Origin: an uncultured Saprospiraceae bacterium
GTDB lineage: Bacteria > Bacteroidota > Bacteroidia > Chitinophagales > Saprospiraceae
NCBI GenBank assembly: GCA_937923345.1
Contig: CAKZVJ010000164.1
Span: 4,052-68,051, forward strand
Direction: 5' to 3'
Length of the DNA stretch: 64,000 nt
Of this stretch, positions 26,808-51,346 are shown piece by piece; position 1 is the stretch's first letter; each line of letters opens with the position of its first letter. The translations under genes and the position numbers were made by a program. The notes below the pieces were generated by a model. It did no database searches. It was not told where the DNA came from and was given only the letters and a program-made list of their open reading frames with translations.

Positions 26808-26940
26808 GGGCATGACCCAGATACTGCGCAGAAAAAGCGCCGCATCTGGGTCGGGCCATCCATGACTCCGTATTCACTTCGGACCATCCCTTGAGGGTCT
26901 GGTCTGCTCCTTACCGTCGCATCATTTCTACCCCTCATGC
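26808..26940 (-). repeat. GC-rich multi-hairpin element, diverged type A, inverted copy E3
   Basis: The reverse complement carries ATGAGGGGT (26930-26938 on the plus strand) and CCCGACCCAG...CTGGGTCATGCCC, which matches the E1 3' module CCCGACCCTG...GGGTCAGCCCC. Confidence 0.6.
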
Positions 26941-27616: not shown

Positions 27617-27676
27617 CCATTCATTTTCTTACCAATTTATTTTCTGAACATGCTTAATTCATAATCATTCATTTTG

Positions 27677-27795
27677 GAATGTTCAGAAATATCATATTTC
27701 GATGAGGTTAAACCTTCTTCACCTAAAAATCTCTAAATGATTACATCAATTTTAATATTATTACTTTAAAAACGGGGTGATTCTTTGATTCAATT
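27677..27795 (+). repeat. 119-nt AT-rich interspersed repeat, copy A
   Basis: Gapless 119-nt alignment to the reverse complement of 40981-41099 with 18 mismatches by my hand count. Identical blocks are ATGTTCAGAAATATCATATTTCG, AAAATCTCTAAATGATTA and TTAAAAACGGGGTGAT. Confidence 0.85.
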
Positions 27796-27897: not shown

Positions 27898-28086
27898 CTT
27901 TTCTAACTTCTGAATATCCCTCATTTTGTTCTCGATTATTATAATATAAGCTAGCGTGTGCGAAACCACCACAGTAATCCAAAGTCAAAGCTCACTGATA
28001 CAAATCACCAGAGTATTTTATGGTGTCTTGTATAAATGAGAATGCTATAGTGAACTCCCTAATTCATAACTCATAATTCATAATTC

Positions 28087-28229
28087 CCTTCCTTCGTGTG
28101 AGCGATAGTAAGGGCAGCTGCTTCAGCAGCTGGTCCCGATTTTTTTCAATCGGGACGGGAGCGACAGCGCACCCCTGCATAGCGCGACATGGACCGACAC
28201 CTTTTTCGGTGGAGGGGAGTGGCACACCC
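28087..28229 (-). repeat. GC-rich multi-hairpin interspersed element, type B, inverted copy E6
   Basis: The reverse complement reads GGGTGTGCC...GCGCTATGCAGGGGTGC...GTCCCGAT-tgaaaaaa-ATCGGGAC...CAGCTGC-tgaa-GCAGCTG...CCCTTACTATCGCTCACACGAAGG. It is collinear with E7. Confidence 0.75.
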
Positions 28230-28263
28230 AAAAAATCCGAACTAATATTATTACCTGTCAAAT

Positions 28264-28314
28264 AAAAAAAAAGGACTGATCAATAATGTTTGACCAATCC
28301 TTTGTTTTTTTTTT
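28264..28314. terminator. putative bidirectional terminator downstream of fadA
   Basis: A9 run, imperfect 12-bp stem AGGACTGATCAA / TTGACCAATCCT with two mismatches, then a T-rich run. Confidence 0.45.
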
Positions 28315-33026: not shown

Positions 33027-33440
33027 ATGGGCTTGAAAAAAAGAGGTAAAGTAAGTGCCGAATTTAGTATGTCGTCATTGACGGACATCATATTTTTGTT
33101 GTTGATATTTTTTATGTTGACATCAAAACTGGTGGTCATTGACCCGTACGAACTGCCAGAGTCAGATTCTACCACTGTAGCACCTACAAATATTATTGCA
33201 CAAGTAAGAACTACCGGCAAAATCCAGTTGAACGTAGATGGTAAGGAATCTATGGTCACCTCTACGAGAGAGATTGTGAGAAAAGTAAAGCCAGCCTTAG
33301 GTACTATTGAGAATAGAGACAATGCAACGCTCACCATTGTAGCAGAGGTCGGCGTCCCTTTTAAAAAAGTATCTATGCTGATGGCTGCTGCCGCTGAGTT
33401 AAGGATGAAAGCCATTATTGCAACACAACCTGTAGAATAA
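33027..33440 (+). CDS. exbD: ExbD/TolR biopolymer transport protein (paralogue 1)
   Basis: SLTDIIFLLLIFFM TM segment containing the conserved Asp, plus a periplasmic domain. Confidence 0.85.
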   Translation: MGLKKRGKVSAEFSMSSLTDIIFLLLIFFMLTSKLVVIDPYELPESDSTTVAPTNIIAQVRTTGKIQLNVDGKESMVTSTREIVRKVKPALGTIENRDNATLTIVAEVGVPFKKVSMLMAAAAELRMKAIIATQPVE

Positions 33441-33446
33441 AAGATT

Positions 33447-33836
33447 ATGGGACTTAAAAAAAGAGGTAAGGTAAGCGCTGAATTTAGTATGTCCTCATTG
33501 ACGGACATCATATTTTTGTTGCTTATATTTTTTATGCTGACATCGTCTTTGGTATCGCCCAATGCCCTCAATCTCAAGATGCCAGGTAAGGAAAGTGTCA
33601 AGAGCTCTACTGCAAATAACTTACAAAAAATTTCGATCACCAAGACAGGTTCATTCTTGTTTGAGGGAGTTGCGGTAAGTAACAACGCCATCAGTGATCT
33701 GATGAAAGGCATGAAAGGGGAGACCATCATAGTAGCTCCTCATCGCGATGCGCCGATTGAGAAGGTAGTCCGCATCATGGACCTTTCTATGCGTTACAAA
33801 ATCGAGACGGTGCTAGCGGCCTCAGACGACAGATAG
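33447..33836 (+). CDS. exbD: ExbD/TolR biopolymer transport protein (paralogue 2)
   Basis: First 33 aa are identical to paralogue 1. The periplasmic domain is divergent. Confidence 0.85.
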   Translation: MGLKKRGKVSAEFSMSSLTDIIFLLLIFFMLTSSLVSPNALNLKMPGKESVKSSTANNLQKISITKTGSFLFEGVAVSNNAISDLMKGMKGETIIVAPHRDAPIEKVVRIMDLSMRYKIETVLAASDDR

Positions 33837-33870
33837 ATTTTACAAGATCAAGATATTTACCATGGTTACA

Positions 33871-34067
33871 ATGAGGGTGTGCCCCCTGATGGCCTCTCAA
33901 CGCCTCAAAAAAGAGGCCTTTAGAGGCCATCAGGCGTCGGGCTATTGCGGGGTGCCCGTTCCGATAGTTTTTTCTGATAGGTAGTTGTTTCTGTAAAACT
34001 GCAGCTAGTCAATAAAAAATCGGAACCGCCAAGAAGATTCGGCGCCCTATCTATCCCTCACACGAAG
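33871..34067 (+). repeat. GC-rich multi-hairpin interspersed element, type B, copy E7
   Basis: ATGAGGGTGTGCC. Perfect 13-bp stem 33885-33897 / 33922-33934 with a nested GCCTC/GAGGC hairpin. GGGCTATTGCGGGGTGC. GTTCCGAT (33958-33965) pairs with ATCGGAAC (34019-34026) across a 53-nt AT-rich loop. Ends in GCCCTATCTATCCCTCACACGAAG. Confidence 0.75.
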
Positions 34068-34306
34068 ACCTATTACCGAGAATAAAGTGTAAACTACTTA
34101 CAAAATAGGACTATGTTTAACGAACTAGATCTGTAGGTAGAAAACCACGTAAGCTAGACTCGTATTCATATAAAGAGTAAAAATGAAAGCGCTTTAAAAA
34201 TATCTAAGAACGTACATTTTTACGCATTATTTAATTTTAATATATATCTTTACAACAGACATAGTCGTTAAGTAATCAAAAACATAGCCTCTGTGGAATC
34301 TAAATC

Positions 34307-35245
34307 ATGAACAATTTTATCAACATAGAAATAAAAGACAAGCGTAAGGCACGTATCTACACGGGCATTATTATGGCTATTTTTTTCATTATTATTGTTT
34401 TCCTTCCTTTATTTTCATACCAAAATCCACCTCCAGGTCAGGAAGGTGTACTGGTTAGTTTTGGCCAAGTCAACCAAGGGCAAGGCAATGAAGCTCCAGC
34501 AGAAAACAAACCTTCTAAATCAGAAGAGACTAAACCAAAACCTCAAAAGAAAGAAAAGGTAGAACCAAAACCGAAGCCTAAAGCAAAACCAACTCCTAAG
34601 GAACCTAAACCTAAAAAGGTAAAACCACAAGTTGATAAAAAAGTAATCGAAGCGCGTAATGCGGAAATTGCTTTAGCAAAAGAGAAGGCTGAACAAGTAG
34701 AAAAAGAAAAAGCTAGAAAAGCGGCTGAGGTAGCAGAACGCTTAGCAAAAGCCGAAGCTGCAGCAGAAAAAAGACGTGCAGAAGAAGAGGCAAAAGCCAT
34801 AGCAGCAGCGGCTGCAGCAAAGAAAAAGAAAGATGCTTTAGATTTTAAGAATAGTCTCGCGGACTCATTTAAAAAGGGTAAGGGTACTGGCCAAGGAGAT
34901 GGTGGTGTCCCCGGTAATCAAGGCGACCCAGACGGTGATCCTAATTCTGAAGTGCTAAAAGGACTGAGCACTGGCGTAGGGGTGATCGGAGGAGGTCTGC
35001 AAGGACGCGGCGGAAAAGGACCTGGTATCACCGACAATAGTAATAAAACAGGTGTCGTGGTGGTATATTTATGCATAGATGCTAGAGGCAATGTCAATTC
35101 TGCTAGATACATCCTGAAAGGCTCCACCACCTCCGATCCACAATTGCAAAAATTGGCCGTAGAAAACGCCAAGAAGTGGAATTTCAACCCAGGCACAACC
35201 GATGAGACCTGTGGTACAATCACCTATCAGTTTAAGGTGAAATAG
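34307..35245 (+). CDS. TonB-like energy transducer
   Basis: N-terminal TM helix, K/P/E-rich spacer (KPKPQKKEKVEPKPKPKAKPTPKEPKPKK), Ala/Glu-rich helix and a C-terminal beta domain of about 80 aa. Lies downstream of exbB-exbD-exbD. Confidence 0.6.
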   Translation: MNNFINIEIKDKRKARIYTGIIMAIFFIIIVFLPLFSYQNPPPGQEGVLVSFGQVNQGQGNEAPAENKPSKSEETKPKPQKKEKVEPKPKPKAKPTPKEPKPKKVKPQVDKKVIEARNAEIALAKEKAEQVEKEKARKAAEVAERLAKAEAAAEKRRAEEEAKAIAAAAAAKKKKDALDFKNSLADSFKKGKGTGQGDGGVPGNQGDPDGDPNSEVLKGLSTGVGVIGGGLQGRGGKGPGITDNSNKTGVVVVYLCIDARGNVNSARYILKGSTTSDPQLQKLAVENAKKWNFNPGTTDETCGTITYQFKVK

Positions 35246-39977: not shown

Positions 39978-40982
39978 ATGGAGAGATTACAAATTTATGT
40001 GTCGATGATATTTCTACTTTCAATGTACACTTATACCATCAATGCGCAAACCCCTTTGTTTCCAAATTCGGTGGTGAGTAATGATATTGATTACATATTT
40101 GAATCGGATCCTGATTCTTTCGTTGGGAATATTTTCCTTGGTCGAGAAGATAGAGAAACACCTGGTGCTCCAGATGGGAGCAGCTTGTTTGATGTAGATA
40201 CTTATATTTTTGAAGCAAATTTTACAGACGGAGAAACAATCGAAATTTGGTGCCACAGTTCTTTTGAAAGTCAAGATGCTGCCCAAGAGTTTGCTGATAA
40301 ACTAGGGCCTAGACTCGGTAAGTTACCTATATTTCAAAGAAACATGTTAAACCACGTAGTAATTCATAATGGGGATGGTGGTGCTTTTGCCGAAATAGAA
40401 GGTCAATTTTTTATCCTTTATTCCGAAAATATGGATGCGAGAATTAGTACTAATGATTTGGAAGAAACTGTCTTTCATGAATCGGTACATTCTTCGTATC
40501 AGTTTATGTATCAAAATCATCCTGATTGGCTCGCTGCACAGGCAGCTGATCTTTCATTTGTTACGACCTTTGGGGAGAATAATCCTACCTTGGAGGATAT
40601 TGCCGAGTCTGCTCTTTTTGCTTATACATATCTCACCTATCCAGGAAGACTTGATGAAAGTATTGAAACTTGGTTGGAAGAAAACAATGCCAATAGATTA
40701 GAATTTTTTGGTAAGTTTTATGGTCAAACTACTAATGTAAGTGAAGTAGATTTACTCCAAGATCTAAGGATTAGCCCTAATCCTTCTAGAGGTAAATTTA
40801 CCTTGCATTCGGATGGAGCTTTAAATGGGGTAGTAAATATTATTAGCCTAGATGGGACCATTCTAAATTCACTACGGGTTGATAAGGAAAGTGAGTATAC
40901 CATAGATTTGAGCTCTTATGAAAATGGATTATATCTGATTTCAATACCAGGATATAAAGACGCAAAAGTTTTAAAATATTAA
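39978..40982 (+). CDS. T9SS C-terminal-sorting-domain protein with an HExxH motif
   Basis: Signal peptide. FHESVH (HExxH) in the N-terminal domain. C-terminal tail of about 80 aa, ISPNPSRGKFTL...GLYLISI...KVLKY, typical of type-A Por secretion tails. Confidence 0.65.
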   Translation: MERLQIYVSMIFLLSMYTYTINAQTPLFPNSVVSNDIDYIFESDPDSFVGNIFLGREDRETPGAPDGSSLFDVDTYIFEANFTDGETIEIWCHSSFESQDAAQEFADKLGPRLGKLPIFQRNMLNHVVIHNGDGGAFAEIEGQFFILYSENMDARISTNDLEETVFHESVHSSYQFMYQNHPDWLAAQAADLSFVTTFGENNPTLEDIAESALFAYTYLTYPGRLDESIETWLEENNANRLEFFGKFYGQTTNVSEVDLLQDLRISPNPSRGKFTLHSDGALNGVVNIISLDGTILNSLRVDKESEYTIDLSSYENGLYLISIPGYKDAKVLKY

Positions 40983-41099
40983 TTGAATCTGAGTATCACC
41001 CCGTTTTTAATTCAATAATCTTAAAAATGAATTAATCATTTAGAGATTTTAAGATGTAGAATGTTTTATCTCAACGAAATATGATATTTCTGAACATCC
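40981..41099 (-). repeat. 119-nt AT-rich interspersed repeat, copy B (inverted)
   Basis: Reverse complement aligns to 27677-27795. Begins inside the TAA stop codon (40980-40982) of the T9SS cargo gene. Confidence 0.85.
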
Positions 41100-41253
41100 C
41101 TACTTTGTCATGGTTTCTCTCAATAAGCAAAACAACCTGGAGCTATCTATAGCTCAGTTATTTTATTCTGAGAGTTGAGAGCTAGTAAAAAATAAAAACG
41201 ATAACCAATTCAACATTCAACCTACGACATAACGTTTATGCTAGATCCTACAT

Positions 41254-51203: not shown

Positions 51204-51346
51204 ATGGGTAGTATGGTTTGGCGGATCCACTTGCCAAGCTAGGCTACAAGGCTCGGCAGCAAGTGGCCAGGCTATTCGCAGCTCGGTCCCGAAAGAAAAT
51301 ATTCGGGACTGGTCTCTACCGAGCCCACTGCTACTATCCTTATCCG
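51204..51346 (+). repeat. GC-rich multi-hairpin interspersed element, type B, copy E8
   Basis: ATGGGTAG..., CCACTTGCC/GGCA(GC)AAGTGG stem, GGCTATTCGCAG, GTCCCGAA-agaaaata-TTCGGGAC inside CTCGG/CCGAG, ending in CTACTATCCTTATCCG. Confidence 0.65.

Follow-up and report, generated by a model that had tools for sequence, protein, structure and literature searches.

The window analysed here is a stretch of 64,000 nucleotides from contig CAKZVJ010000164.1 (positions 4,052 to 68,051) in the assembly GCA_937923345.1 of an uncultured Saprospiraceae bacterium. It contains a block of four genes whose products carry the Pfam domains MotA_ExbB, ExbD, ExbD and TonB_C, and in which the stop codon of the second exbD gene (exbD2) and the start of the TonB-like gene are separated by a spacer of 470 nt. 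The spacer holds a GC-rich stretch at 33871-34067, which an earlier reading of the sequence (the original prediction) had assigned to a dispersed family of GC-rich multi-hairpin elements called type-B and had proposed as a regulatory site within the gene block. Our analysis indicates that the element is probably a copy, inherited vertically, of a family of structured repeats that are invasive and non-autonomous, and that it sits as a passenger between the end of exbD2 and the promoter region of tonB.

Structure and copies of the type-B element

Pfam and the coordinates upheld the gene context and spacer length of the original prediction, and its boxes and stems were all found in the sequence exactly where it had placed them. 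These are the opening box ATGAGGGTGTGCC at 33871-33883, a perfect 13-bp stem of CCTGATGGCCTCT (33885-33897) and AGAGGCCATCAGG (33922-33934) around the nested hairpin GCCTC-AAAAAA-GAGGC at 33902-33917, the box GGGCTATTGCGGGGTGC, the stem GTTCCGAT/ATCGGAAC, which closes exactly 53 nt, CGCC at 34027-34030 with GGCG at 34041-34044, and the 3' box at 34045-34067. The outer limits needed adjustment: the family boundary begins at GGG (33875), the leading ATGA belongs to the flank, and the element extends from 33875 to 34063 (Table 1). The fold of the entire 197-nt stretch is more stable than that of dinucleotide shuffles, with z = -5.89 as DNA and -6.59 as RNA, and none of 200 shuffles equalled it.

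Six hand-picked relatives served as the seed of an nhmmer search of the 4.47-Mb assembly, which returned about 70-100 copies (~70 at E<1e-3). An alignment of 14 compact copies then gave a covariance model of 133 positions and 26 pairs, termed R1, in which the RNAalifold consensus was combined with the visible outer helix. The studied copy was left out of this seed and is nevertheless matched by R1, which supports the family membership that had been claimed for it. At E<0.01, R1 finds at least 140 type-B copies in the genome, a lower bound because 150 of the 947 first-look candidates were scored, and in the window it raises the number of copies from the three originally recognised to four. The copies have a median length of 133.5 nt and a mean G+C content of 57%, as compared to 39% for the genome.

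Read in the orientation of R1, a copy is made up of TTT, GGG-YGTG-CC, the P2 hairpin (often with a GAAAAA loop), GTCGGGCTMTNCAGGGGT, P3a, TCCCGT, P4, P5, CCCTTNCTATCCCTCACRC and a purine run. The outer helix P1 pairs GYGTG with CACRC over 5 bp, and the P2 region varies between 11 and 58 nt across copies. P3 is a long-range helix of GGG..TA..GGG with CCC..TA..CCC that spans everything in between and contains a conserved internal loop. P3a is a small hairpin (GCGC-N4-GCGC), which the studied copy lacks, and P4 has the form GTCCCGAT-loop-ATCGGGAC. A four-way junction joins P3, P3a, P4 and P5, and many unpaired nucleotides at this junction are invariant.

This fold is backed by extensive covariation. 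In a model-guided alignment of 87 copies, standard pairs occupy 94.6% of 2130 cells, a value somewhat inflated by the fitting of the alignment to R1, compared to 70.1% in shuffles. Changes on both sides are present at 23 of the 26 pairs, and double-change cells number 504 versus 117 in shuffles, a count that none of 500 shuffles reached. When the pairing partners are slid by 1-3 columns, pairing drops to 40-49% and the covariation score falls from 0.576 to a maximum of 0.107. Compensatory changes were already visible at 16 of the 21 predicted pairs in the seed alignment produced by MAFFT only. The covariation signal is among the strongest that can be obtained from one genome.

The original prediction had regarded the 53 nt enclosed by P4 as a loop expanded by an insertion. 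P4 is indeed longer here than in most copies, for which the model-guided alignment gives a median of 24 nt with seven copies exceeding 1.6 times this value, and the orthologous copy in the congener G002 has a 6-nt GAAAAA loop, which leaves the studied copy with 47 additional nt. However, the extra sequence is not a foreign insert specific to this site, because the same module recurs in at least six other copies (C165, C63, C130, C285, C145 and C323), which have a P4 of 68-70 nt with related sequence and the pattern GAT-AG-YTTKTYC.G.CACC ... GGCTRGTYGG-AAAA-ATC. The ortholog of the C145 copy in the congener G004 has the same long P4, and G002 contains another long copy. The 53-nt 'loop' is best described as an old, optional extension of P4. 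Its history may have followed one of two courses: either a long ancestral copy was present at the exbD2-tonB site and G002 deleted 47 nt, or the ancestral copy may have been short and this genome gained the P4 module by recombination with another copy.

With respect to neighbouring genes, the copies show no orientation bias, and the classes >E>, >E<, <E> and <E< (E, element) contain 35, 22, 22 and 19 copies, respectively. Of the downstream genes, 57 run in the direction of the element and 41 against it, so that the constant orientation in front of a defined gene set, as expected of riboswitches or 5' leaders, is not observed. The median distance is 32-48 nt past a co-directional stop codon as opposed to 140-225 nt from gene starts, and the 38 nt between exbD2 and the studied copy are typical of the family. 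Clustering of all open reading frames (ORFs) within 3 kb of 132 copies yielded ordinary paralog families only; transposases, integrases or nucleases did not recur among these ORFs. The copies also come with no conserved promoter or terminator. The flanks carry TTT on the 5' side (73-80%) and are purine-rich on the 3' side (A-runs or G-runs), including positions +1 to +7; the pairing of TTT with RRR flanks is no commoner than base composition predicts.

Some minor features of the copies were also recorded. Positions -13 to -1 of 126 upstream flanks show a weak 3-nt A/T period, with A at -13/-10/-7/-4 and T at -12/-9/-6/-3, ending in TTT. Most copies are single, a few stand as inverted pairs 30-534 nt apart (C280:16787-17135, C212:2802-3567, C168:10747-11190 and C257:23402-24223), and inverted pairs within 600 nt number only 4 among the 132 copies. 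The inverted pair 26808/28229 in the window encloses an ORF of 145 aa with a hydrophobic N-terminus, in which no nuclease signature was obvious by eye, no family search having been run. Over 96 nt, the copy at 28096-28229 shares 96% identity with another copy.

Table 1. Type-B copies, parts of the studied copy and adjacent features in the window
Feature	Position	Strand	Evidence
exbD2, upstream gene	33447..33836	+	Pfam ExbD, 4e-20; stop codon 38 nt 5' of the element
Type-B structured repeat, studied copy	33875..34063	+	R1 37.3 bits, E ~1e-8, model positions 1-133; fold z -5.9/-6.6
P1 5' arm GTGTG (partner CACAC at 34059-34063)	33877..33881	+	Helix 1: double changes in 5/5 pairs over 87 copies, 97.9% of cells paired
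P2 variable hairpin; here a perfect 13-bp stem with nested GCCTC-A6-GAGGC	33885..33934	+	Sequence
5' core strand GTCGGGCTATTGCGGGGTGCCCGT: P3 5' arms and junction nucleotides	33936..33959	+	Helices 2 and 3
P4 5' arm GTTCCGAT	33958..33965	+	Helix 5; compensatory change relative to GTCCCGAT/ATCGGGAC of the G002 ortholog
Optional P4 extension module (the 53-nt 'loop')	33966..34018	+	Missing in the G002 ortholog; recurs in other copies
P4 3' arm ATCGGAAC	34019..34026	+	Sequence, helix 5, G002 comparison
P5 hairpin CGCC...GGCG	34027..34044	+	Helix 7: double changes in 4/4 pairs
3' core strand CCCTATCTATCCCTCACAC: P3 3' arms and P1 3' arm	34045..34063	+	Column make-up of the alignment, covariation over copies
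AT-rich conserved block 5' of tonB with TATCTTTA, candidate tonB promoter	34230..34253	+	7/8 positions of the Bacteroidota -7 box TAnnTTTG
TonB-like gene, downstream	34307..35245	+	Pfam TonB_C, 5.9e-5; congeners have orthologs
Type-B copy	26808..26940	+	R1 68.2 bits
Type-B copy, best-scoring in the genome	28096..28229	-	R1 135.6 bits
Type-B copy	51220..51346	+	R1 37.8 bits

The exbD2-tonB junction in related genomes

In the sister species G002, whose TonB is 81% identical, a type-B copy (78.8 bits) lies 44 nt past exbD2. This copy is orthologous to the studied one: it has the same position and orientation, it lacks P3a as well, and GTCGGGCTATTGCGGGGTGCCCGT and GCCCTATCTATCCCTCACACGAA are identical in both, as is ACCGAGA just downstream. 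The cores agree at 77 of 82 positions, compared to 82% identity in the neighbouring coding DNA and 17/38 and 21/43 (45-49%) in the two flanks. Within the element, the segments 33934-33965 and 34045-34067 match at 30/32 and 22/23 positions, while P2 matches at 11 of 30 aligned positions and P5 at 5 of 13. A compensatory pair in P4 is among the few core differences, with GTCCCGAT/ATCGGGAC in G002 versus GTTCCGAT/ATCGGAAC in the studied copy.

The original prediction had suggested comparing this junction among related genomes, and the comparison shows it filled in G002 and empty in G001 and G003, two congeners free of the family, in which exbD2 and tonB are separated by about 60-93 nt. In G005 and G007, the contigs break at the junction, as repeats tend to cause. 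Searches with TonB as the query, for related loci among genome contigs and for encoding contigs, returned no match. The G002 spacer measures 1019 nt, with unrelated DNA between the element and tonB. These ~850 nt of extra spacer DNA include an ORF of 92 aa with hydrophobic stretches (G002 L026 712-990), and the junction evidently tolerates large insertions.

About 60 nt before the start of tonB, the sequence TTTAATATATATCTTT(A/G)C is common to this genome, G002 and G004 and contains TATCTTTG (TATCTTTA in this genome). The -7 promoter box of Bacteroidota has the published consensus TAnnTTTG. Because the conserved block fits this consensus, tonB presumably has its own promoter downstream of the element.

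These observations bear directly on the regulatory role that had been proposed for the element, namely that exbB, exbD, exbD and tonB are co-transcribed and that the element, as part of this mRNA, determines the ExbBD:TonB ratio through processing, stability or attenuation. The position of the element on the sense strand 38 nt past the exbD2 stop codon, its very high stability and the retention of a copy with a conserved core in two species are in line with this proposal, but the same family occupies at least 140 unrelated loci in both orientations, and in the basal congeners the same gene block has its 60-93-nt spacer without any element. In G002, ORF-bearing extra DNA within the 1019-nt spacer intervenes between the element and tonB, and the promoter-like block in front of tonB is conserved separately from the element. 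One weak terminator-like site is present at 33948-33973, where CGGGGTGCCCGTTCCG is followed by ATAGTTTTTT, partly supplied by the P4 extension; its T-run is not conserved in the other long-P4 copies. A GC-rich hairpin with a U-run kept among the copies, as expected of an intrinsic terminator or attenuator, is likewise not found, the 3' positions being purine-rich. We therefore consider this role very unlikely: a dedicated setting of the ExbBD:TonB ratio finds no support, and neither does any other property specific to TonB regulation in the exbD2-tonB copy. The long spacer is better understood as a repeat insertion that is also present in a sister species and missing in basal species than as a tailored regulator.

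Copies at other sites show both persistence and loss. At a site near 41.2 kb, type-B is present in G002, G005 and G004, with compensatory changes between these copies in P5 and P2. The window itself retains at 40981-41240 only the P2 end of type-B; the rest is AT-rich and adjoins a 119-nt repeat that is also found inverted at 27676-27795. In the intact copies of the relatives (L035 9947-10107, L034 16923-17084 and L036 4851-4948), P2 encloses a hairpin flanked by A7/T7 that resembles a bidirectional terminator. An ortholog pair in Leptospira (L. chreensis and L. vanthielii) matches at 57/64 core positions, as compared to 47-61% identity in the flanks, and its P4 has been replaced entirely. Thus, type-B copies come and go, and many of them are old.

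Distribution of type-B and comparison with known repeats

Five of the seven other species of the genus hold 89-103 scored copies each and the two basal ones none; the latter are the most distant by TonB identity (48-50%). Other genera and families of the order gave 0-2 matches each (23 genomes). A scan for an exact pattern of 18 bases from the core, in which each prokaryotic species was represented by one genome, gave matches in several metagenome-assembled genomes (MAGs) of uncultured Saprospiraceae, one of which is the congener G006, in one MAG each of Chitinophagales and Chitinophagaceae, in another Bacteroidota MAG, in at least seven saprophytic Leptospira species, in Spirochaetaceae/Spirochaetia MAGs and in Fibrobacterota. 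R1 confirms the pattern loci, its highest scores being 76 bits in Bacteroidota and 60 bits in Leptospira. At E<=1e-5, the number of copies reaches 108 in Saprospiraceae H3_Bin_203, 89 in Chitinophagales SKYG42, and 46 and 44 in two other Bacteroidota MAGs, while three Leptospira species have 21, 15 and 10 and a Spirochaetaceae MAG has 10. The patchy range and the jumps in copy number fit an invasive element, and so does the copy at 28096-28229, for which R1 has no match within 1.5 kb past fadA in G007 (98% protein identity).

Single or few R1 matches of 40-43 bits occur in a Pirellulales MAG (L127) and in two Fibrobacterota MAGs (L131 and L132), and the range of the family may thus exceed the sample. 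The plasmid and phage collections gave no match to type-B. A reverse-transcriptase gene at C217:5411-6010 (RVT_1, 1.5e-40) is present only in this genome among the eight congeners searched and has no link to type-B.

Type-B is absent from the Rfam 15 library, in which no family for it was retrieved with the whole window at the gathering threshold or, in scans by E-value, with three stretches of the window and seven loci of other phyla. Its base helix resembles that of Flavo-1. We know of no function that has been assigned to Flavo-1 since 2010. Flavo-1 corresponds to the motif RF01705 (Weinberg et al. 2010, PMC2864571) and is also present in Leptospira (bioRxiv 10.1101/2023.03.29.534852); in the transcriptome of Flavobacterium psychrophilum, it is found sense, antisense or outside transcribed regions (PMC9723704). 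RF01705 has no match in the window at the gathering threshold, nor at E<=10 on 33700-34400 or 28050-28280. Across the genome, it gives 14 sub-threshold matches (type-A, Flavo-1-like; best 38.9 bits versus a cut-off of 42), none of which overlaps type-B. Even at E<=1 per genome, RF01705 does not match type-B copies, and R1 does not match type-A copies. By model, type-A and type-B are separate families.

The resemblance lies in the consensus of the base helix, which is ccG-A-Uu-GaA-Gc with gC-GgA-aA-G-Cgg in Flavo-1 and GGG-A-UA-GNA-(A)GGG with CCC(U)-GNA-UA-G-CCC on the reverse strand of type-B. In both, a 3-bp helix is accompanied by an A.G mismatch, by two A-U/U-A pairs and, ahead of the next helix, by a 3x3 GNA/GNA internal loop; this likeness comes from a comparison of consensus sequences and carries no statistics. 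The two are also alike in being multi-copy, GC-rich, intergenic and orientation-independent, and in occurring in Bacteroidota and in Leptospira/Spirochaetes. In contrast, Flavo-1 has one hairpin between the two conserved boxes, where type-B has a four-way junction with P3a, P4 and P5, and it comprises 76 model positions as opposed to ~130 nt in type-B, which adds the outer P1 and the P2 hairpin. We therefore treat type-B as a putative larger, junctioned sister of Flavo-1 and not as a member. Together, the two may mark one unrecognised system of mobilisation or maintenance, an idea that can be tested at the bench because saprophytic Leptospira are cultivable.

Several other classes of repeats share properties with type-B. 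Like the repetitive extragenic palindromes (REPs) and the related BIME and REPIN-RAYT systems, it is intergenic, with dozens to hundreds of copies that follow closely on gene 3' ends in both orientations, keep their structure through Watson-Crick pairs and are long-lived. However, REPs are single imperfect palindromes of 20-40 nt, often arranged as inverted doublets, whereas type-B has ~130 nt and at least five helices. The RAYT domain Y1_Tnp (PF01797) is absent from G005 and G006, which contain ~100 copies each, and is present in the copy-free G003, in genomes that are 62-91% complete. MRSC motifs (Narunsky et al. 2024, PMC11109978) are likewise covarying structured motifs with many copies per genome and inconsistent gene orientation, but MRSC-65-2 (PMC11109978) is a single long stem that is sometimes found near transposases, while type-B is junctioned and has no transposase association. 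Miniature inverted-repeat transposable elements (MITEs), such as Correia/NEMIS, RUP and ERIC, are similarly small, non-coding, non-autonomous and amplified, and can sit in operon spacers and be co-transcribed. Different from these, type-B appears to lack long terminal inverted repeats (P1 has 5 bp), a detectable target-site duplication and a parent insertion sequence with matching ends, and its TTT and RRRR flanks are not direct repeats. A literature search for a described repeat of type-B form in Leptospira or Bacteroidota gave only Flavo-1 and the generic MRSC class.

Strand, persistence and possible role of the fold

In the helices of type-B, 94% of the cells are Watson-Crick pairs, 0.56% are G.T and 1.6% are A.C, while in the tRNA stems of the same genome G.U accounts for 8.5% of the pairs and A.C does not occur. 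Because the helices are almost only Watson-Crick and copies are found in either gene orientation, we infer that the fold is most likely relevant in single-stranded DNA, or else on both strands. The folding z-scores relative to dinucleotide shuffles are equal on the two strands (-2.45 and -2.26). Raw minimum free energy was also tried for choosing a strand and favoured the opposite one in 113 of 132 copies, but this preference was gone against dinucleotide shuffles and is therefore an effect of base composition.

The analysis shows that type-B came into an ancestor common to part of this Saprospiraceae genus, where it was amplified to more than 100 copies per genome. The copies are located between genes, chiefly close behind gene 3' ends, and have since persisted, with the core remaining nearly unchanged at orthologous sites while hairpin tips were replaced or expanded. 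In the explanation that we favour, the fold, whether in single-stranded DNA or on both strands, would be recognised by a trans-acting enzyme or a host protein; both the mechanism of mobilisation and the reason for conservation in place are parts of the account that we infer. An effect on the ExbBD:TonB ratio, if any, would be that of a generic cluster of stable hairpins in a read-through transcript and not that of a dedicated control.

Several observations weigh against this explanation. No mobilising enzyme was found, and genes for Y1 (HUH) transposases (Y1_Tnp) and reverse transcriptases (RVT_1) do not track type-B among the congeners, which is not proof given the incomplete assemblies. Neither a target-site duplication nor an exact empty site could be established, the flanks being TTT and purine-rich and the polymorphic site at 28096-28229 not alignable: past fadA in G007, where R1 has no match, the intergenic DNA does not align. 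In addition, at orthologous sites the core evolves at a lower rate than the coding genes next to it, which is unexpected of a decaying selfish insert and points to a function in place. Finally, the non-Watson-Crick cells lean one way, with 35 A.C versus 12 G.T in the R1 orientation, and 16 of them are C.A cells at the single pair 105-384, which would be U.G when read on the other strand. On the strand opposite to R1, the internal loop that is conserved in P3 reads as G.A/A.G mismatches, and an RNA role on this strand is possible.

An RNA role is the essence of an alternative in which type-B is a multi-copy functional RNA (a protein-binding domain, a small RNA or a ribozyme) with an active four-way junction, read opposite to R1 and thus in the orientation of Flavo-1. 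It would account for the many invariant unpaired nucleotides at the junction and for a core kept at orthologous loci in two phyla. On the strand in question, the excess of A.C over G.T becomes one of G.U wobbles, the orthologs show G.U intermediates, and the internal loop reads as tandem G.A/A.G, like the Flavo-1 consensus. Nevertheless, wobble pairs make up at most 1.6% of the cells, far from the value in the tRNAs, the copies have neither a gene orientation bias nor a conserved promoter or terminator, and no Rfam ribozyme or RNA family matches them. Moreover, the related Flavo-1 occurs irrespective of transcript sense (PMC9723704). On balance, a functional RNA appears rather improbable.

Quite unlikely, too, is an alternative at the DNA level, in which the copies are sites used by the host for binding or extrusion by a nucleoid, topoisomerase or replication-associated protein, as proposed for REP/BIME, and are selected for this use and not for mobility. 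The strand-symmetric, Watson-Crick-only pairing, the location of copies at gene 3' ends and the long life of single copies with a conserved core would all suit such sites. It is harder to reconcile with a patchy phylogeny, with copy numbers from 0 to ~100 within one genus, and with the decay of copies, as at the ~41.2-kb site, which is filled in G002, G004 and G005 and has left only remnants in this genome. A candidate binding protein was not identified.

The slow change of the core also allows a more far-reaching proposal than the passenger explanation that we favour. Tentatively, type-B could represent an undescribed, cross-phylum class of structured nucleic acids and a sister of the orphan Flavo-1, whose four-way-junction core is under purifying selection for a role in place, either as the fold used by an enzyme system acting on single-stranded DNA or RNA or as a catalytic or protein-binding RNA, and which would not be merely a decaying selfish insert; we regard this as possible, though less likely than not. 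Independent of its role, the family is noteworthy for being missing from Rfam 15, for its copy number, which exceeds 100 per genome in several uncultured Bacteroidota and is 10-21 in saprophytic Leptospira, and for a core that is better conserved than neighbouring protein genes at orthologous sites.

A separate observation concerns the tandem exbD genes upstream of the element. Their first 98 nt (33027-33124 and 33447-33544) are 90% identical, far above the rest of the genes, and the cross-match between the 5' ends is present in relatives too. This pattern suggests gene conversion between the two exbD paralogs.

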